A DNA stretch of 25,949 nt, taken from IMG/VR virus record IMGVR_UViG_3300037634_002155, positions 1-25,949 of that record; one strand, 5' to 3'. The position numbers were made by a program, and so were the translations under genes. The notes beneath the pieces were generated by a model. The model was not told the origin of the DNA. It did no database searches and saw nothing but the letters and a program-made list of their open reading frames with translations. Positions 42-11,001 of this stretch are shown here, piece after piece; within the stretch, counting starts at the first letter, position 1, and each line of letters begins with the position of its first letter. Origin of the DNA: a virus (Duplodnaviria > Caudoviricetes).

Positions 42-938
42 TTAATGCACTCCGATCAATACGGGTGTTTGTTTAGTGTCACTGCGACCACAAAAGTGTC
101 CAGACTTTGTGCAAGTTCCACATTTACCAGGACATACAAAAGCTTTTTTTATTCCGGCATCAATACCGGCAGTACGTACGGCGCTCTTATATTCCGGCGT
201 ATTGTATTTACCTTTTAGCTTTTTATCGATTTCTACGGCGATAAAATCGCCACGAACAATAGGCAATTGCGAAACTTGAGCTCGTAAATGTTCGGCGCTT
301 GCGCCATTGCTTAGGTTAAGCAAATAGTTATCGGGCCAGCCGATTTTTGGCGCTCGTTTTGTAGCATAGTCCAACAATAACTGCCAGGATTTAGAATAAC
401 CGTAAACGCGTAAATCAGGCCTGGAGCGCAACAACACAAACCAATACGTTACAGTCAACAAACTATCAAAATCGCCATCCACATATAACCGGCAGTCAAT
501 ACCCGCGGGTAGTTCCATAGTTTTTTTTGTGATAAGTTTGCGACCAATAGCCGATTTAATTAATAACGTATTTTGCACCTGGCGAAATAGCGCCGTCGGA
601 TAGCGCCAAGACTTAACCGTATAACAATATCCAGCGCCAGCCACATTATCCACAAACCAACAAGCTCCAGCGCCAGGACAAGTTACACCGGGTAGTGTGC
701 TAAAACTGGCAAAAGGTAACTTATTGTTTCCGTCAAGATTCCAAACCGAAAACGGCGTATTATCCGGCATTCCTTGGTCAATCCATTGTGCCAGTTTATT
801 GGCGTAATATTTCCAGGTTCCGCGAGTATTTGCGCCATCAATTTGGCGTAACAATTCTATCACTTTCGCGCTCTTACCAGCGCCGGCGGCTTGCGCTATT
901 TCCAGCGCTTGTTTTTTTGTCATAACAAACTTAGCCAT
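42..938 (-). CDS. Gp88-like phage protein (Cys-rich, radical-SAM-like Fe-S candidate)
   Basis: GNNKLP..FS.LPGVTCPGAGAC...CY, RLYVDGDF, YGYSKSW, NLS and C-terminal CPGKCGTC...HFC match my recollection of the GP88 family pattern. Confidence 0.75.
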   Translation of the reverse strand: MAKFVMTKKQALEIAQAAGAGKSAKVIELLRQIDGANTRGTWKYYANKLAQWIDQGMPDNTPFSVWNLDGNNKLPFASFSTLPGVTCPGAGACWFVDNVAGAGYCYTVKSWRYPTALFRQVQNTLLIKSAIGRKLITKKTMELPAGIDCRLYVDGDFDSLLTVTYWFVLLRSRPDLRVYGYSKSWQLLLDYATKRAPKIGWPDNYLLNLSNGASAEHLRAQVSQLPIVRGDFIAVEIDKKLKGKYNTPEYKSAVRTAGIDAGIKKAFVCPGKCGTCTKSGHFCGRSDTKQTPVLIGVH

Positions 939-1083
939 TATTTGACTGCTTTTTTAGGGCTAGTATTTCTTCACCTAAGTAATACGTATAGCTTTGCAAA
1001 TTCTCTATTCTTTCACTTTGTATTCTGGCATATACATACAAACCACAACAAACGAACATTAAAATAATTATTAGCAATTCCAT
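931..1083 (-). CDS. Small membrane-anchored protein (50 aa)
   Basis: ATG at 1083 directly after the upstream stop (1085); N-terminal hydrophobic helix MELLIIILMFVCCGLYVY; stop overlaps the Gp88 start. Confidence 0.65.
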   Translation of the reverse strand: MELLIIILMFVCCGLYVYARIQSERIENLQSYTYYLGEEILALKKQSNNG

Positions 1084-1084
1084 G

Positions 1085-1270
1085 TTATTTGTACTCCGGA
1101 ATAATGGTGAAACCACTACCGACGGTTTGTATCTGTGGTTTACGGTTTGCCAATTCGTAAAGGTGCGCAAACTCATCAAGAAAAAACTGTTCTATTGTTT
1201 GTGTTTTTGGTTTGCGCTGGGCTGTTGGCGCTTGTCGCCTGTCGTCAAACTGAAACTGTGACTGTTGCAT
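1085..1270 (-). CDS. Hypothetical protein, first gene of the leftward early operon
   Basis: GAGG RBS upstream of ATG; lies just downstream of the 1336-1308 promoter. Confidence 0.7.
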   Translation of the reverse strand: MQQSQFQFDDRRQAPTAQRKPKTQTIEQFFLDEFAHLYELANRKPQIQTVGSGFTIIPEYK

Positions 1271-1307
1271 AGTGTCCTCATTTGGTTAAAGTAATATGAT
1301 ACAGAGA

Positions 1308-1336
1308 AACTTAACCTGTTGTTAATTTCTTGTCAA
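1308..1336 (-). promoter_or_regulatory. Leftward sigma70 promoter with overlapping TTAAC-N5-GTTAA operator
   Basis: Minus strand TTGACA-17 nt-TAAGTT; palindrome TTAACCTGTTGTTAA at 1311-1325. Confidence 0.75.
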
Positions 1337-1418
1337 GCTTATAATGTATATATATCTGTTTTTGTTTAGCGATAACTTGCCGGCGTTTGTCCAGGTTAAC
1401 CGGCGCAACATATAAAAC

Positions 1419-1466
1419 CGGTTTATCTGGTTTGGTTTTTTCTCTGGTTTGTTTCTGGTTTGTTTG
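1419..1466. repeat. TCTGGTTTG / GGTTT short-repeat array
   Basis: TCTGGTTTG at 1426, 1443 and 1454 plus further GGTTT/GTTTG units. Confidence 0.7.
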
Positions 1467-1530
1467 TAAATAAATACAAGATAATACGATATCAATCAAT
1501 CCTGATTAAACCGGCAAACCAATTGAAAAC

Positions 1531-1618
1531 TGATTGAGATTGATTGAGATTGATTGAATCCGATTAGATTAGATTGGAATCGATTGCGATTGGATTAGAT
1601 TGAGATTAGATTAGATTG
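1531..1618. repeat. GATT short-repeat array with ~10 bp phasing
   Basis: 15 GATT copies in about 88 bp; in-phase copies at 1532, 1542, 1552, 1562, 1572, 1582, 1593, 1604, 1614. Confidence 0.9.
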
Positions 1619-1621
1619 CAC

Positions 1622-1650
1622 TTGACAATAGATTAACCTGACGTTAACTT
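1622..1650 (+). promoter_or_regulatory. Rightward sigma70 promoter with overlapping TTAAC-N5-GTTAA operator
   Basis: TTGACA-17 nt-TAACTT; palindrome TTAACCTGACGTTAA at 1633-1647, in the same register as in the leftward promoter. Confidence 0.75.
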
Positions 1651-1690
1651 GATTGTCAATCATATTACCTAACTAATCGAAAGGATTACG

Positions 1691-2026
1691 ATGGATACCC
1701 AACCCACACAGATGCAGATTACGATTGCAAATCATTTCAAATTTGATTGCATGTTGTTAGAGAATTTCGACGATGAACGCCCCAGCCAATACGATTCCGG
1801 ATCGGGGGCGTGTCAAAAATGGGTATGTGCAGAGGTTACCGATTTCCGTTCCGGGCGCGGTGCATGGCATATCGTCGAAATCAAATCGCCTGTTCCAGAA
1901 TGGGCGTTGGAAACGGCGAGGTTTTCCATTGATTATGATTCGTGGTATGTAAAGCTGGTCACGTCAAGGTTGGAATCGGCGTTGGAATGTGCTATGGATC
2001 TAGAAGAAAATATCGTAGCAGAATAA
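1691..2026 (+). CDS. Hypothetical acidic early protein
   Basis: AAAGGA RBS; first ORF after the promoter; about 20 D/E vs 9 K/R. Confidence 0.75.
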   Translation: MDTQPTQMQITIANHFKFDCMLLENFDDERPSQYDSGSGACQKWVCAEVTDFRSGRGAWHIVEIKSPVPEWALETARFSIDYDSWYVKLVTSRLESALECAMDLEENIVAE

Positions 2027-2087
2027 TTTAGAGAATCCCACATTTTTCATTATAATTTTAACAGGTTAAACAAACGGAGGAATCACA

Positions 2088-2546
2088 ATGGTATCAATGA
2101 ATGAGCATAACGAGATACAAAAACCAGAAGACGTGCAGTATAGCAGTCGCAACACTAATATCAAATACGAAGACGATCATTTTAATGACGGCATAGGTGA
2201 AGACGATCCGCCTACCGATACCAATCTACAAGTCAAGACGTTTTACTACTCAGCACGAGCATTAGAGCGCATTGAGTTACGGTTGTCCAGTATGGGCAAA
2301 TTGCACGATCTCGTTAAACGTGTTGAAGATCACTACAACGAGTATACAGAGAGTGGCGAACAGATAAACCACGAACGATATGATTACACCTCTACCCTCA
2401 CGCTTGAAGTCGAAGATGCGAAACAACTGGTCGAAGATTTACAAAAGGCTATCATTGTAGCCGAAACAGCTACAGCAGAGTATCGCGCCTACCAATCCGC
2501 TAAGTGGGCGGCTGAACGTGCAAAAAACGAGGCCGACAATGGCTAA
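2088..2546 (+). CDS. Hypothetical early protein (acidic N-terminus, helical C-terminus)
   Basis: GGAGG RBS; overlaps the next start. Confidence 0.8.
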   Translation: MVSMNEHNEIQKPEDVQYSSRNTNIKYEDDHFNDGIGEDDPPTDTNLQVKTFYYSARALERIELRLSSMGKLHDLVKRVEDHYNEYTESGEQINHERYDYTSTLTLEVEDAKQLVEDLQKAIIVAETATAEYRAYQSAKWAAERAKNEADNG

Positions 2547-3159
2547 AACAATCACAATATCAATGCCCGATAACGAATACGCTCATCCATTGTACGTGCC
2601 AAACGTCAAACGTGCATTCATTCAATACGATCCAGAGTTACAGGCACTCCACGCTGACTACACCGAAAACGATAGTGTGTTGGCAGAAGTAAGAGAAGGT
2701 GAGGTTTTTCAGTGGCCGATTGAAGTTAATAGGACACGCGAACAGATACAAGATGGCTTAGATACGATTAAAAACGCATTGGAATCCAATCAGGTTACAC
2801 CAGAGCAAATCACAGAAATTGCCAATGGTTCCACACTGCAAAAAGCGTCTACTGATATAGGCAGAGTGTTCGATTATTACGATAGTCTGGATTATAACGG
2901 CGGTGTGGCGCAAGCATACGATTGGGTAAATGTTGAGGCGTGGCTTGGCTCACAAACAACAGAAGAATTTTGCGAGGGGTTGAATGACGATCCATCAGAT
3001 CAATTACGTGAGTGGTTTGGTGATGGCGACCTCAAGCAAGAAGACGACGAAGGCAATCGGCATGTTCATCACGATACGGAGACTACCACGATAATTGGCC
3101 TATTGGATTACTGGCGCGACCGTGTAGACGAGTATCGTGCGGAAAAGGCGACGGTGTAG
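2539..3159 (+). CDS. Hypothetical strongly acidic protein
   Basis: ATG 2539 with GAGG RBS; about 43 D/E vs 16 K/R in 206 aa. Confidence 0.8.
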   Translation: MAKTITISMPDNEYAHPLYVPNVKRAFIQYDPELQALHADYTENDSVLAEVREGEVFQWPIEVNRTREQIQDGLDTIKNALESNQVTPEQITEIANGSTLQKASTDIGRVFDYYDSLDYNGGVAQAYDWVNVEAWLGSQTTEEFCEGLNDDPSDQLREWFGDGDLKQEDDEGNRHVHHDTETTTIIGLLDYWRDRVDEYRAEKATV

Positions 3160-3161
3160 CC

Positions 3162-3332
3162 ATGACTAAACAAGAAATACTGGAATGGCTAGAACGATTG
3201 GCTCAGTTTCGCACCGAATCGATTACCAACGAAACAGAGCGCGAACGCATGGCGGCCAACGAAGAGTTTAATACCGGGTTTGGTTGGCTGATACGCGATC
3301 TCAAAACGGATCTGGAAAGTGAGGCAAACTGA
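3162..3332 (+). CDS. Small hypothetical protein (56 aa, MTKQEILEWLERLAQF...), absent from the ORF track
   Basis: Fills the gap exactly: ATG 2 nt after the previous stop; TGATG overlap with the recombinase start. Confidence 0.75.
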   Translation: MTKQEILEWLERLAQFRTESITNETERERMAANEEFNTGFGWLIRDLKTDLESEAN

Positions 3333-4252
3333 TGACTGTATTATCATTGCCCCATCCGTCAGCAGATTTGCTTGGCCCGTTCCTGGAGTCACAAACCACA
3401 ACCCATACACGTATAGCTTACAGCGCCGATCTACGGGCGTTTTTTGGCACGGAGTTGATTACGATTGACCAGGTAACTTCGATTGGTTTTGAGGATGTTG
3501 AGCAATACCGGAACGAGCTCGTCGCGGAAGGCAAAAAGCCTACGACGGTGAACCGGTATCTCACCAGCCTGTTTGCGTTTTTCAAAAGGTGCGTAGCATT
3601 GGGTTTGATTGCACGTAACCCGGCAGACAGTGCATTGGTTAAACGATTGCGGATGGCCGATACCTCAGTAGGCAAAGCGATTGCACCCGAACACATTGCC
3701 GAAATGATTAGCCTTGCAAGCAAGCACGACAACCGTTTGATTGCATTGCGCGACGTAGCATTGCTCAAGGTTCTATTGTATGCCGGCCTACGGCGCAACG
3801 AGGCTTGCCATATGCAATGGTCTGACCTGATTGTTGAAGGCGGTCATACAATTGTTATACTGCGTGACACTAAGGCTCAAACCGATCAGCATGTAAAGCT
3901 GGCCCCTATCGTAGTTGAGGCACTCACCGCGTTGTCGGACGCATTAAACGGCCAGTTTGATTATGTGTTTGTCTCGCTGCATCACAAGAGCAGATACGGC
4001 AATCAGATCAGCAGTAAGGCCGTGCGCGATGTAGTGGTGCGATACGGCGAGATGATTGGCCTAAAGATCACCACACACCAGTTACGCCATACATGCGCTA
4101 CGTTGGCCATGGAAGGTGGAGCGAAACCCCAGCAGGTTCAATCTCATCTCAGGCACAAGGATATCAAAACGACCATGCGCTATTACACTGAACGCGATGC
4201 CCTATCGGACAACGCAACCGATTACATATCGATTGGAGTGGGCAATGAGTGA
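3332..4252 (+). CDS. Tyrosine recombinase, XerC/XerD/Cre type (no arm-binding domain)
   Basis: N-terminal core-binding domain (T..AY..DL..F; TVNRYL..L..FF) and full catalytic set GLRRNE, TK, HQLRH, LRHKD, TMRY. Confidence 0.93.
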   Translation: MTVLSLPHPSADLLGPFLESQTTTHTRIAYSADLRAFFGTELITIDQVTSIGFEDVEQYRNELVAEGKKPTTVNRYLTSLFAFFKRCVALGLIARNPADSALVKRLRMADTSVGKAIAPEHIAEMISLASKHDNRLIALRDVALLKVLLYAGLRRNEACHMQWSDLIVEGGHTIVILRDTKAQTDQHVKLAPIVVEALTALSDALNGQFDYVFVSLHHKSRYGNQISSKAVRDVVVRYGEMIGLKITTHQLRHTCATLAMEGGAKPQQVQSHLRHKDIKTTMRYYTERDALSDNATDYISIGVGNE

Positions 4253-4460
4253 GCAAACGCCCGGAGAGCGCATTAAAGAGGTGCGTGAGAGTTTAGGTTT
4301 GAGTCAGCGCACGTTTGCCGGTATGATTGGAGTCACGGCTATCGCGCAAAACCGGTGGGAACGCAACAAGGCAGAGCCATCTGAAACCATCGTACGGTTT
4401 GTCGAATTGATTGCAACATTGAAACCTGGAGCAGATTGGCTTAAATTGTATACGTCGTAA
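4245..4460 (+). CDS. XRE/Cro-family helix-turn-helix regulator (71 aa)
   Basis: IKEVRESLGLSQRTFAGMIGVTAIAQNRWERNKAEP; GGAG RBS; overlaps the recombinase stop. Confidence 0.9.
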   Translation: MSEQTPGERIKEVRESLGLSQRTFAGMIGVTAIAQNRWERNKAEPSETIVRFVELIATLKPGADWLKLYTS

Positions 4461-4486
4461 CCTTTTGGTTTACGGTAATATGATAG

Positions 4487-4526
4487 CAGTCGCTGATCGG
4501 GTCGTCCGGTTGGCGGCTGTTTTTTT
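4487..4526 (+). terminator. Rho-independent terminator of the rightward early operon
   Basis: 14-bp stem CAGTCGCTGATCGG/CCGGTTGGCGGCTG with 4 G-U pairs, followed by T7. Confidence 0.85.
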
Positions 4527-4538
4527 GTATATCACGTA

Positions 4539-4572
4539 ATGACATTGTATATGTTATGCTATACATTTGCCA
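4539..4572. other. loxP-like 13-8-13 site (candidate tyrosine recombinase target)
   Basis: ATGACATTGTATA-TGTTATGC-TATACATTTGCCA vs loxP ATAACTTCGTATA-ATGTATGC-TATACGAAGTTAT: 20/34 identical, 8-bp spacer, TGTATA/TATACA inner arms. Confidence 0.45.
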
Positions 4573-4610
4573 ACTGGCAATTCTTTTATAGTAACTTTTT
4601 TTCAAGTAAC

Positions 4611-4767
4611 AGACGGCTACACCCATCAGTATTTGATTGCCCCTACCCCTCAAAATTTCATGTGGTGAAAGATAAAAAGCAACTATATTGCTATTTTTGC
4701 AGTAATATAGGTGCATACCACGCAAAAATCTTTCATAAAAACCCTAAAAATTAGACGGCTACACCCA
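4611..4767 (+). repeat. 15-bp direct repeat AGACGGCTACACCCA bounding a structured AT-rich segment
   Basis: Exact copies at 4611-4625 and 4753-4767; partial copy ACGGCTACAC at 5650-5659. Confidence 0.8.
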
Positions 4768-4832
4768 CCCGAAATAAATTTGCATTAGAATATGTGCAGT
4801 GTATATTACACCACCCCCACAAGGAGATGGCT

Positions 4833-5516
4833 ATGACAGAGATTGCAAGTAGAGTAGCAGAGAACATTCAAATATTGTTGGATCGACTCTCCATGTCACA
4901 GACGACGCTGGCGGAAACCAGTGGCCTGAACCGCTCGACAATCCAAGAAATAATCAGCCACCGCACAACGCCTAACATTCAAACGCTCGACCAGATTGCG
5001 AGAGCGTTGGAGGTTGAGCCGGCGACGCTGATGAAATCTGGATTGGAAAAAGTAAAACTCACCGGCATCAAAAAAATTGATACAGCGATTGCCGAAATAA
5101 ACAATAATTTGTATAAGGGGCCATCGGCCAAAAAAACTATCGGTAAATATTTTGCGCCCGACTACTGCCTAAAATATGCAGACCGGCCAGTAGGAGACCC
5201 CCTGCGAGTTGGGCCTGGTCTGGACGAGGAACTCAAGGTAAACCACACGATAATCGAAAGCCAGCAGCCGATGGCGATCATTCGCACTGCGTGGGTCACG
5301 GGCAAACAAGTGCATACACTTTTGGAAGTTCGCCGCAATGCCAACTCACTGGATGACACTATAGCGGCGGCGCTACGTGCCGATGCCCATTTCCAAATCG
5401 CACAACTGATAGATACGTGGATGCTGGCTCATTCCGTAGACCACGTTGCAAATGAAGCTGCGCCAATAAAAATAGAGAGGAGACTGCTCAAATATTTAAA
5501 CAACAAATTCGAATAG
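4833..5516 (+). CDS. XRE-family transcriptional regulator (repressor candidate) with NTF2/SnoaL-like C-terminal domain
   Basis: N-terminal HTH (MSQTTLAETSGLNRSTIQEIIS..TTPNIQTLDQIARALEV); AAGGAG RBS before ATG 4833; no S24 peptidase motifs. The C-terminal fold call is tentative. Confidence 0.85.
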   Translation: MTEIASRVAENIQILLDRLSMSQTTLAETSGLNRSTIQEIISHRTTPNIQTLDQIARALEVEPATLMKSGLEKVKLTGIKKIDTAIAEINNNLYKGPSAKKTIGKYFAPDYCLKYADRPVGDPLRVGPGLDEELKVNHTIIESQQPMAIIRTAWVTGKQVHTLLEVRRNANSLDDTIAAALRADAHFQIAQLIDTWMLAHSVDHVANEAAPIKIERRLLKYLNNKFE

Positions 5517-5518
5517 CA

Positions 5519-5600
5519 TAAAAAAGAGGCCCACGCGGTGCTGATACACCGTGTAGGCCGGTAACAATCCACCCATCTCGCAAAAGAAAGTAGGAATGTT
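5519..5600 (-). ncRNA. Putative ~80 nt small RNA
   Basis: Starts downstream of a near-consensus promoter (5635-5607) and ends in hairpin 5528-5559 plus U6; no RBS-led ORF inside. Confidence 0.55.
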
Positions 5601-5606
5601 GTGAAT

Positions 5607-5635
5607 ATATTACTGAACAATCGTGCAATAGTCAA
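5607..5635 (-). promoter_or_regulatory. Leftward sigma70 promoter
   Basis: Minus strand TTGACT-17 nt-TAATAT. Confidence 0.7.
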
Positions 5636-5731
5636 GTGGCTAAAGTTGCACGGCTACACACTCGCCCTCACCCTCACATCGCTTTACGTTGTCGCGTTTC
5701 TGATTGTGCCTTTTGTTTGCGAGGTGCTGAA

Positions 5732-6226
5732 ATGACAGAGATTCGCACCTTTCCACCTAAAATTATTTTTGATTCCAAAGTTGTCGAGATCACCAAAGGC
5801 AAAGATAATCGCGGTGACCCGACCACGATTTTGCCGGACGGCACGGCGCACGACCTCATTCTCAATTACGACACGCCGCTTGAAAAGGATGGCAAATACG
5901 GGCCGTATTACATCTACAGCGTAGACCATTCCGGCATCACCCACACCATGTTCGCAAACCCCCGTCAACATGAGGCGATACAGAATGCCGGTGGACATCG
6001 AGGCTCAACGATCCATATCCAGTGTGACCGCGAGGAATTCACGGGTAGAGACGGCACACAAAAATGGGCGCCGGTCTGGACGGTTACCTGCACGGCTGCG
6101 CCCAATACCGCAGATACATTTTTAGCCTCTGAGGATGCCAAAGCGTCGGCTGAGAAAGCGGCTGAGGCGCTCTATGGCGAGCAACCAAAAGAAGAACAAG
6201 CTGATCTGTTGGGGGGTGATCTGTGA
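5732..6226 (+). CDS. Hypothetical protein, possible ssDNA-binding (beta-rich with acidic tail)
   Basis: GAGGTG RBS before ATG 5732; aromatic beta-strand motifs (GKYGPYYIYSV); acidic C-terminus. Function is inferred. Confidence 0.7.
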   Translation: MTEIRTFPPKIIFDSKVVEITKGKDNRGDPTTILPDGTAHDLILNYDTPLEKDGKYGPYYIYSVDHSGITHTMFANPRQHEAIQNAGGHRGSTIHIQCDREEFTGRDGTQKWAPVWTVTCTAAPNTADTFLASEDAKASAEKAAEALYGEQPKEEQADLLGGDL

Positions 6227-8967: not shown

Positions 8968-9223
8968 CAGGAAATACAGAGATGTGGACATGTCGCCCGT
9001 CACGCCGGCACAACAACGAGTGCTGGATGTAATACGGCGACACTTGGAGGAACATAATCGCACACCAACCATCCGGCAGATATGTGAAGAGCTTGGACTC
9101 AAGTCTACGTTCAGCGTGTTCACGCAAATCACTCGACTACAGCGTAAGGGCCATTTGGCTGAAGGGCCAAGAGTTGCACTCAGTGACCGGTATCGAACGG
9201 TCGTATTGGAGAAGAGCGAATGA
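8960..9223 (+). CDS. LexA-type winged-helix DNA-binding protein lacking the peptidase domain
   Basis: TPAQQRVLDVIRRHLEEHNRTPTIRQICEELGLKSTFSVFTQITRLQRKGHL matches the LexA N-domain; GAGG RBS before ATG 8960. Confidence 0.88.
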   Translation: MDNRKYRDVDMSPVTPAQQRVLDVIRRHLEEHNRTPTIRQICEELGLKSTFSVFTQITRLQRKGHLAEGPRVALSDRYRTVVLEKSE

Positions 9224-9438
9224 GCAAAATGGAACCGTTACTACTCACCCCTGATGAAGCTGCTGAAGTTTTGCGTATAAGCAAATCTTATCTCTACGAT
9301 CTTAAATCAAGAGGCGATATTTCTTTTATAAAAATTGGAACAAATTTACGTTTTAGGCGTAGCGATTTAGAAAAATTTATTGAAAAAAAGGCGAAACATA
9401 CGGAGCGTATTTTAAAGCAACAGGAGTTCGTTGTGTAA
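9220..9438 (+). CDS. xis: Excisionase (MerR-like HTH_17)
   Basis: LLTPDEAAEVLRISKSYLYDL...GDISFIKIGTNLRFRRSDLEKFI; adjacent to attP. Confidence 0.88.
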   Translation: MSKMEPLLLTPDEAAEVLRISKSYLYDLKSRGDISFIKIGTNLRFRRSDLEKFIEKKAKHTERILKQQEFVV

Positions 9439-9479
9439 ACACTTTCGATCATAATTCGATCAGTAGCGCATTTCATACC

Positions 9480-9519
9480 AAAACAACCACCTACGAATTG
9501 ACGTAAGTGGTTGTTTTTT
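9480..9519. terminator. Bidirectional terminator (ends xis operon; would follow the reconstituted tRNA)
   Basis: AAAACAACCAC-c-TACG...CGTA-a-GTGGTTGTTTT inverted repeat with A/T runs on both sides. Confidence 0.8.
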
Positions 9520-9520
9520 A

Positions 9521-9567
9521 TGGTGAGCCCGGCGCGAATCGAACGCGCGACCAATTGATTAAAAGTC
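9521..9567 (-). tRNA. 3' half of tRNA-Lys(UUU) = att core, not a complete tRNA
   Basis: GACTTTTAATCAATTGGTCGCGCGTTCGATTCGCGCCGGGCTCACCA: anticodon loop, T arm and CCA present; D arm and 5' anticodon stem do not pair. Confidence 0.9.
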
Positions 9568-9753
9568 CGTACAACACTCAATTACAAGCCATGTAAAAAC
9601 AATACATTATAAATCATATCATTGTGTGCCAACGGTTTACATAAATCATGTCATTACTCTCGCTTACTCTCGCTTACTCGTTTTTGGACTTGACTTCGAT
9701 CATAATTCGATCAATATTTGTGTATGCTTTAAACCCACACAGGAGCTTTAACA

Positions 9754-11001
9754 ATGGCTAAACCCAAAGTTTATCACGTTGGACAAATCACCGTTAAACA
9801 AAGACCTAAATCTTCGCCGTATTATTACGCATGGTGGTTTGATGAAAATCAAAAGGAACATTTACGATCAACAAGAACCACCAATTTAAAAAAAGCATTA
9901 CAACGGGCTAAAGAAATAGATGATGCTATAAACGGTGGCACAATAGAAAAGGTCGAAGAGGTAAAAAAAAACAGAGGCGTGACCTTTGCCCAAGTGACCC
10001 AAGAATACTTCAACGGCGAAACGCAAAACACGAAGAAGTTGCGTAAGCGTCGCCTTAAGGCCGTGACCGAAAAGTCTGCTGCTACGGTAAAAGGTGAGCA
10101 ATCATTTGCGAGAACCATTTGCGCTCATTTTGGCGACCAGCCTGTAGCATCCATCACGGCACTGGACATCACGAAATGGCTGACCAAGATGTCGAAAAAA
10201 GGCGTGAGAAAGTTAGACGGTGGATGGACACCCAGCACCCGTAATCGCCATAAATCATTTTTCAGTTGTGTGCTACACTTGGCCGAAGAGAAAAACTACA
10301 TCGCACGGTGGCCGATGGATGAGGTAGACCATGTAGACGAATTGGTCGATGAAAAGGATTTGCCCACACAAACAAAGTTTGACCAGTTATTGGGTTATTT
10401 GCCCCCCTACGTTTCGCTGATAATGAGCCTAATGCGGTATACCGGAATGAGGGCCGGTGAGCTACATAGCCTTGTTTGGCGAGATATAGATTGGACGGAT
10501 AATGTTATCGTAATCCGACCAAGCAAAGAGAAAGCGTCAAGGGGTCGTAAGATACCAATGAATGACTACGTAAGGCCCACACTGGATAGCTTACGCGGTG
10601 GCAATTCGTGGGTAAAGGAAAATAGCGGTCACAAGGTGCCTACCATCTTTTGGCCGTCTGACGAAAACCTGGACGATTTAATCATACCCCCTATCAATAT
10701 ATATAACACACTCAAACGTGCGGTCCACCAACTTCTAGAAGATACTAAGCATTTAAAAGGCGAGGATCGGTGGACAATTAAAAAGGTCAATCGGCACATG
10801 ATGCGACATTTGTTTGCTACCGATGGATCAGACAGGGGTATGCGTGATTCTGTCTTGATGGATATAGGTGGATGGAACTCTATCACGATGTTACGTCGCT
10901 ATCGCCAAGAATCAGCCAAGCGCAATCAGGAAGAGATGCAACTTTTGAATGGCATCGCCGGTAAACCAAAACCAAAACTAAAAGCGGTCAAATCAGCCTA
11001 A
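9754..11001 (+). CDS. int: Phage integrase (tyrosine recombinase with N-terminal arm-binding domain)
   Basis: YYYAWWFDEN...STRTTNLKKA arm domain; TGMRAGE, HMMRH, GGW, LRRY catalytic motifs; AGGAG RBS; next to attP. Confidence 0.95.
   Translation: MAKPKVYHVGQITVKQRPKSSPYYYAWWFDENQKEHLRSTRTTNLKKALQRAKEIDDAINGGTIEKVEEVKKNRGVTFAQVTQEYFNGETQNTKKLRKRRLKAVTEKSAATVKGEQSFARTICAHFGDQPVASITALDITKWLTKMSKKGVRKLDGGWTPSTRNRHKSFFSCVLHLAEEKNYIARWPMDEVDHVDELVDEKDLPTQTKFDQLLGYLPPYVSLIMSLMRYTGMRAGELHSLVWRDIDWTDNVIVIRPSKEKASRGRKIPMNDYVRPTLDSLRGGNSWVKENSGHKVPTIFWPSDENLDDLIIPPINIYNTLKRAVHQLLEDTKHLKGEDRWTIKKVNRHMMRHLFATDGSDRGMRDSVLMDIGGWNSITMLRRYRQESAKRNQEEMQLLNGIAGKPKPKLKAVKSA

Follow-up and report, generated by a model that had tools for sequence, protein, structure and literature searches.

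The closest described system to the element reported here is the c4 RNA of phages P1 and P7, a 77-nt trans-acting RNA that is described as pairing around the ribosome-binding site (RBS) of its own mRNA, blocking translation, and as being essential for P1/P7 heteroimmunity (PMC12197685). It is reported to share an operon with icd and ant and to control the antirepressor (PMC8198154). We analysed a stretch of viral DNA, IMG/VR record IMGVR_UViG_3300037634_002155 (Caudoviricetes; the whole record of 25,949 bases, hereafter the window), and propose, with a probability of about 0.8, that positions 4453-4526 encode a trans-acting antisense small RNA (sRNA) made from its own promoter, which would repress both divergent early operons of this phage beside a second lock formed by a helix-turn-helix (HTH) protein.

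Like c4, the element is a short phage RNA predicted to pair at the RBS of its own early mRNA, and it would work in much the same manner. Its complementarity to its own leaders is allele-specific, as it is for c4 (38/41 leaders by net binding energy, 35/41 by z-score; see below). It differs from c4 in having its own promoter 2.8-3.2 kb from the targets, a seed placed in a linker rather than in loops, targets that lie right at the +1 of two divergent operons, and at least eight unrelated seed types. Its position is 3'-terminal in the rightward operon that it would control, 2.8 kb from the target there, and its second target is in another operon. No match to any Rfam family, C4 and CI included, was found at E ≤ 5 in window positions 900-6000, nor at the gathering threshold in nine related loci, and the module gave no icd or ant family match. 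Our literature search (supplements not included) found no paper on 4453-4526.

Other phage regulators are less similar. The P4 CI RNA is described as pairing near the 5' end of its own early transcript, being processed from the transcript that it controls, pairing with the flanking seqA and seqC and causing termination (PMC4825925). RNA control of the phage's own early transcript near its 5' end is the shared trait, a less close likeness than that to c4, whereas a separate conserved promoter and two other leaders as targets set the present element apart. P22 Sar and lambda OOP are reported as phage antisense RNAs of 68-77 nt that have their own promoters and lower the synthesis of early regulators, OOP acting in cis (PMC12197685). 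The element proposed here is likewise a short phage antisense RNA with its own promoter. Sar overlaps its target, whereas the present RNA is remote, imperfectly complementary and has at least two targets. Aca autorepressors of acr-aca operons are described with inverted repeats in the promoter and with predicted control of a neighbouring operon, and Aca2/Aca1 protein is described as binding an RNA motif in the 5' untranslated region (UTR) (PMC13551039). The window similarly has an operon of small variable genes that starts at a strong promoter with an inverted repeat and closes with a small HTH gene, but in this case it is a separate antisense RNA that matches the leader; general family scans of the module, which used no dedicated Acr library, gave no Aca or Acr match.

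The proposed antisense RNA unit and its predicted targets

An earlier note on this DNA (the original prediction) had pointed to a 10-mer shared by both early leaders and repeated in antisense orientation at the end of the rightward operon. This motif, ATCATATTAC, indeed occurs exactly three times in the window, at 1291-1300 (-), 1659-1668 (+) and 4475-4484 (-). Shuffling gave a mean of 0.04 exact copies, with three or more in 0/100 shuffles; when one mismatch was allowed no further copy appeared, and 27/100 shuffles reached three at this level. Since the motif was picked after the fact, its true support comes from position and covariation rather than from copy count. The features concerned are as follows.

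1308-1336, - strand: leftward early promoter P_L, TTGACA-17-TAAGTT (from sequence; inverted twin of P_R; counterpart in relatives)
1622-1650, + strand: rightward early promoter P_R, TTGACA-17-TAACTT (from sequence; counterpart in relatives)
1085-1270, - strand: first leftward gene (gene 1270), 61 aa, without family match
1691-2026, + strand: first rightward gene (gene 1691), 111 aa, without family match
1268-1301, - strand: 5' leader of gene 1270, with the seed target at 1300-1291 from the predicted +1 and the RBS GAGG at 1279-1276
1658-1693, + strand: 5' leader of gene 1691, with the seed target at 1659-1669 at the predicted +1/+2, the RBS AAGGA at 1681-1685 and the ATG at 1691
4419-4447, + strand: predicted sRNA promoter, TTGAAA-17-TAAATT, inside the 3' end of the HTH gene (from sequence; counterparts in relatives)
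4453-4475, + strand: 5' hairpin of the sRNA with an anti-RBS/anti-AUG stretch, predicted to open upon binding (from folding)
4474-4485, + strand: mostly single-stranded seed (the third motif copy), flush with the terminator stem, mean unpaired probability 0.72 (from folding)
4485-4526, + strand: terminator hairpin of 15-16 bp, G.U-rich, with a U-tract; the constant part across alleles with different seeds

The twin promoters that had been predicted for the two divergent transcripts were found, as TTGACA-17 elements, at 1336-1308 (-) and 1622-1650 (+) and form the longest inverted repeat within 900-5700. An extended match between 1281 and 4465, also described previously, is present over 21 nt at 81% identity and ends beside the GAGG of gene 1270. 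Two features go beyond the earlier description, namely the promoter-like TTGAAA-17-TAAATT (4419-4447) ahead of the third copy and complementarity to the 1691 leader that extends across the RBS up to the AUG.

The predicted RNA (~73 nt, 4453-4526) consists of a 5' hairpin, an open linker containing the motif and a long terminator (fold z-score -5.6 for 4455-4530). When its 5' part was scanned against both strands of the window, the top duplex was with the 1691 leader (-37.3 kcal/mol; next -27.8), and the 1270 leader ranked ninth by raw duplex energy. With folding costs included, the 1691 leader (net -22.0) and the 1270 leader (net -14.8 kcal/mol, +1 to +60) ranked first and second among the 84 ATG leaders of the window. 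Co-folding with the 1691 leader gave 29 bp from +2 through the AUG, with the 5' part covering the RBS and AUG by 18 bp, while co-folding with the 1270 leader gave 12 seed pairs and seven more that reach the edge of the RBS; in both, the seed helix is continuous with the terminator stem. Thus an own promoter, a single-stranded seed and an intrinsic terminator, the marks of a trans-acting sRNA, are all present at the level of sequence, with seed openness varying by type.

This unit is conserved in relatives. Briefly, 57 loci were retrieved, and the window plus 41 loci with a related recombinase and downstream DNA were analysed; left out were some duplicates, contigs that stop too soon, and loci whose recombinase is distant (≤32% identity or a short match). 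Relative loci carry L-numbers, and W denotes the window. The terminator was found in 41 of the 42 loci (missing in L097), and a promoter-like TTG(A/C)NN-16/17-TAnnnT lay 61-81 nt before its stem in 39/42 loci, duplicates included; L055 and L062 gave no match to the promoter regular expression. All 27 distinct RNAs share the two-hairpin plan while their sequences are unrelated, a 5' hairpin and terminator being predicted in 27/27, with the 5' hairpin beginning ~6-8 nt past the -10. Every one of the 24 distinct terminators folds better on the + strand, and G.U accounts for 97/367 of their pairs (26%). Depending on clade, the -35 of the sRNA promoter coincides with the first, second or third codon position of the HTH frame, which indicates that the promoter is not a by-product of the HTH protein. 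A detector that does not rely on homology was applied to 34 more distant loci (26 with Gp88, 8 with a distant recombinase) and picked up no separately promoted seed-leader unit; L110 gave two 9-nt matches that looked like chance. A scan with the type H terminator (see below for types) returned 62 loci, of which six had the layout, all on contigs already among the relatives.

Covariation of seeds and leaders

The 28-47 nt before the terminator stem fall into at least nine unrelated types. At most loci both leaders start with the complement of the local seed, 6-8 nt past the -10, and the leader motifs are the following.

Types A-D: A ATCATATTAC, B ATCACACT, C ATCTATTAA, D ATAACCTTTCAC
Types E-H: E ATCCACTAACC, F AG(C/T)TGTTAACCTA, G CA(C/T)CATTCA and variants, H ACCATTTA

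The ninth type (L076-L078) has no leaders on its contigs, so the swap tests cover eight types; L065 has a further leader motif, its contig ending before its RNA. Leaders were defined as the 46 nt after each -10, giving 41 leaders from 21 loci and eight seed types. When each leader was paired with RNAs of its own and of other types, its own type was best by shuffle z-score for 35/41 (the own column being the locus's own RNA) and by net binding energy for 38/41 (median -14.1 for own against -3.8 for other types; one representative RNA per type, chance ~1 in 8). Among ATG leaders, those of the two divergent first genes took the first two ranks in the window and in five of eight ranked relatives (L055, L056, L064, L067 and L075). 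Seed copies were also present before internal RBS-ATG sites without a promoter match (L060 7078, L061 8923, L064 5616, L054 6469, L092 4365 and L074 1608), and these tie the target to translation starts; the promoter regular expression had also missed several true promoters, and the sequence upstream of internal starts was read by eye.

Seeds are exchanged between otherwise similar loci. In L076-L078 another seed accompanies the terminator of the window and a recombinase of 95% identity, L055 and L056 have 94% identical recombinases and different seeds, and contigs of independent runs join other seeds to the window's terminator at 4481/4482, within the same samples. Two side observations concern the range of targets. 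In type G (L051 9556, L082 9361) the RNA has further matches, to the leader of the operon that follows its terminator and to several later genes, and may thus have a wider target set. At L061 8923 the leader of the HTH gene itself carries a seed match, so that the RNA would there repress the repressor.

Several results weigh against the proposed antisense repression. The 41 leaders amount to eight types as units of evidence and not to 41 independent events, and promoters were picked from the regular-expression list after the top duplex hits, those of L054 and L092 being uncertain. The three misses by net energy were W_L, L082_L and L066_L, W_L being bound slightly better by type B. Seed openness is uneven among the 27 RNAs (mean unpaired probability 0.33-0.89). 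The 5' part without the seed paired significantly with leaders of its own type in 18/41 cases and with those of other types in 33/287, picked its own leader in 15/41, mostly type A rightward and type G, and did not pick the leftward leader of the window; with allele specificity in just 15/41, coverage of the RBS is not general, and coverage of the RBS and AUG is a trait of types A and G. Seed-leader pairing has an excess of G.U over A.C (28 against 9), which speaks for action as RNA but is weak after composition correction (p 0.04-0.07). Lastly, the purpose, shut-off or immunity, is a guess, and the target genes have no known function.

Proposed mechanism and alternative explanations

The second lock concerns the following features.

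4245-4460, + strand: Cro/XRE-type HTH gene, 71 aa, last in the rightward operon, its 3' end holding the sRNA promoter
1311-1325: palindrome TTAAC-N5-GTTAA over the P_L spacer and -10, a probable operator of the 4245 HTH protein
1633-1647: palindrome TTAAC-N5-GTTAA in P_R

The palindrome is centred on position 19 in both promoters. The HTH recognition helix VTAIAQNRWE occurs with TTAAC-type sites (window; L050, via L107), VAYTIQNRWE with TTACA-N5-TGTAA (L075) and VTPIIQ/VTPAIVNRWE with ATACT-N-AGTAT-like sites (L074, L056 and L057); the relation is unclear in the remaining types. The protein thus probably binds the palindromes in both promoters, with helix and palindrome changing together in three apparent classes. 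The first three loci in this list share one RNA type, which indicates that operator and seed specificities vary separately.

From the computed layout, the conservation of promoter and fold, the position of the targets and the covariation of seeds with leaders, we infer the following course of events. The strong early promoters would fire on phage entry while the sRNA builds up from its own promoter. The open seed would then dock on the first 11-12 bases of both early mRNAs, flush with the terminator hairpin, and pairing would spread so that the 5' hairpin unzips and the RBS is covered, fully for gene 1691 and as far as its edge for gene 1270. This would stop translation of the lead genes of both early operons, with a probable polar loss of the genes behind them. 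The HTH protein would close the promoters, so that the early module would be off after a first burst and be kept off in the prophage, where sRNA and HTH protein would likewise silence a superinfecting phage of matching type. Since seed and leaders change together, each allele should silence its own type alone, which would create heteroimmunity-like groups.

An alternative that we consider unlikely is that the RNA acts on transcription, capturing the nascent 5' end, abortive transcripts or the non-template strand at the start site and thereby causing premature termination or decay; a protein that recognises the constant hairpin may take part. The targets do begin 6-8 nt past the -10 at nearly every locus, the seeds are near-perfect in Watson-Crick terms, the end of the target abuts the terminator stem and pairing at the RBS is allele-specific in some types only; termination through pairing also has a reported precedent in the P4 CI RNA (PMC4825925). 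However, the seed stands equally far from the ATG in internal leaders that lack a promoter match, 18 bp span the RBS and AUG in the rightward leader of the window, an RNA-guided protein family was not found in the module, and the +1 register may merely mean that the leaders are as long as the guide. A related and equally tentative idea is that of a natural reprogrammable guide, in which a protein of the phage or of the host would use the constant G.U-rich 15-bp hairpin as a handle and the swappable seed would read the transcript start or the opened start site, silencing matching promoters.

The original prediction had offered two models. In the first, the 3' UTR of the operon, or an RNA processed from it, pairs with both leaders as a transcription-length timer. 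Its pairing component is supported by the seed-leader covariation, but the RNA appears to be separately promoted, and with an own promoter the timer is not needed. A version in which pairing is confined to the 3' end of the 2.9-kb rightward transcript, or to a fragment processed from that transcript, and shut-off comes once the operon is completed is, in our judgement, improbable: the rightward operon does share the terminator of the sRNA, and the HTH gene overlaps the sRNA promoter, but 39/42 loci retain the promoter-like site 61-81 nt ahead of the stem, across three HTH reading frames, and the 5' hairpin begins about 6-8 nt past the -10 of that promoter. Sequence 4453-4526 also ends the long rightward transcript, and read-through may contribute.

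In the second model, the three copies are DNA sites, either crossover sites of the neighbouring recombinase (inversion or excision) or, in a variant that we add, protein operators. The features involved are the following.

3332-4252, + strand: Xer-like tyrosine recombinase, catalytic motifs apparently intact (family match, homologues)
1490-1620, + strand: strand-polar GATT(G/A) repeats lying between P_L and P_R, which served to mark orientation

An apparently intact recombinase does lie between the copies, whose orientations are as previously described. Tyrosine-recombinase crossover sites consist of two inverted arms of 11-13 bp around an overlap of 6-8 bp; as candidates for such sites, the ATCATATTAC copies gave best arm matches of 6, 6 and 5 of 11 against a background median of 6 and were rejected. 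No inverted form was found, the intergenic segment having one orientation in 16/16 loci (GATT(G/A) copies in the P_L-P_R interval were more frequent on + than on - in all 16; 14 against 1 in the window). No junction at 1291, 1659 or 4475 was seen in four contig sets (X3, X5, X9 and X20), in which rare variants can be missed, and the nine joints found there all lay elsewhere. Moreover, the motifs are unrelated between near-identical recombinases (L055 and L056, 94%), and the match continues with bulges and G.U-type changes. The recombinase model is therefore not supported and was rejected, and DNA sites of any kind are a very improbable explanation. A dif-like stretch past the terminator (~4537-4560) was dropped, not being a conserved palindrome in relatives.

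Chance, or a functionless relic of an inverted duplication of the leader, has next to no probability: the motif is AT-rich and was chosen post hoc, which would fit this reading, but the same register with matching leaders is kept across eight unrelated seed types and the swap tests largely refute it.

Two known classes of system were also considered and set aside. A type I toxin-antitoxin system was rejected because there is no single conserved small protein, the first genes behind the top-ranked leaders ranging from 48 to 241 aa and differing in sequence. TldR-like RNA-guided repressors comprise a TnpB/Cas-derived protein beside the guide, and no such family was found among the module proteins.

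Genomic setting and significance

The window is linear with an estimated completeness of 72%, and the runs containing it are marine or seawater metagenomes. Its right part holds structural genes, a RusA-like gene, a LexA-type gene and a second integrase of 415 aa at 9754-11001, a gene content that makes a temperate life style plausible. The left end is the divergent module, with small leftward open reading frames (ORFs) and a Gp88-family gene on one side and small rightward ORFs, the recombinase and the HTH gene on the other.

42-938, - strand: Gp88-family gene (PF17338), downstream in the leftward operon (family match)

For the early genes, target genes included, no usable match came from Pfam, PHROGs, NCBIfam or the protein atlas. 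Two scans of genome contigs found no relative and no prophage, and matches to annotated phages were all below 60% identity (28-30% for the best 12). Among cellular homologues of the recombinase that carry a name, the closest belong to Ca. Latescibacterota (44-46%), plus one to Gemmatimonadetes, which weakly suggests that the hosts are probably Latescibacterota or related bacteria. No tRNA genes were found in the window.

Several further observations were made along the window. The GATT(G/A) repeats, which stand directly upstream of P_R and in relatives too occupy a segment flanked by divergent promoters, are possibly a protein-loading site or an origin element. A reverse promoter-like TTGACA-18-TAATCT at 1630-1659 (-) overlaps P_R and points left into these repeats; it is kept in L073, L075, L079 and L107. 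Before gene 2088, an internal promoter-like site in 2027-2071 (TATAAT 2051-2056) is followed by TTAAC-AG-GTTAA, which resembles the P_L/P_R palindrome, and contig joints around 2027-2071 mark genes gained or lost at start codons. The rightward operons under the proposed control in L003, L004, L006 and L007 contain DNA methyltransferase-like ORFs (judged by eye), which a long ORF in a different frame often overlaps. The motif (A/C)CGGCTACAC occurs in three copies that flank the 4833 HTH gene on both sides (4605-4770 and 5642-5659) and are possibly operators of its protein; this stretch differs in relatives. The second integrase is preceded by a 72-aa ORF (window 9220-11001; ORF read in L001), which we take to be excisionase-like, and by a palindrome with a 10/11 match at 9484-9512.

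What appears particular to this element is a +1-flush seed on two divergent transcripts combined with a fast exchange of specificity types. The locus family is a natural swap experiment, in which a single scaffold carries eight or more unrelated seed-leader pairs that switch between otherwise near-identical co-occurring seawater phages, and it suggests a two-lock design, an HTH operator and a toehold-like RNA acting on one early promoter pair. As the promoters are of consensus sigma-70 type and the parts are short, every allele pair should be testable in Escherichia coli reporters, and the seed-leader set could serve as a source of orthogonal RNA regulators. If the reprogrammable-guide idea were true, seed-leader pairs would sort co-occurring marine phages into exclusion groups by an RNA-guided mechanism that has not been described. 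If the proposed antisense repression is true, RNA heteroimmunity of the c4 type would extend from a few coliphages to a group of uncultured marine phages.

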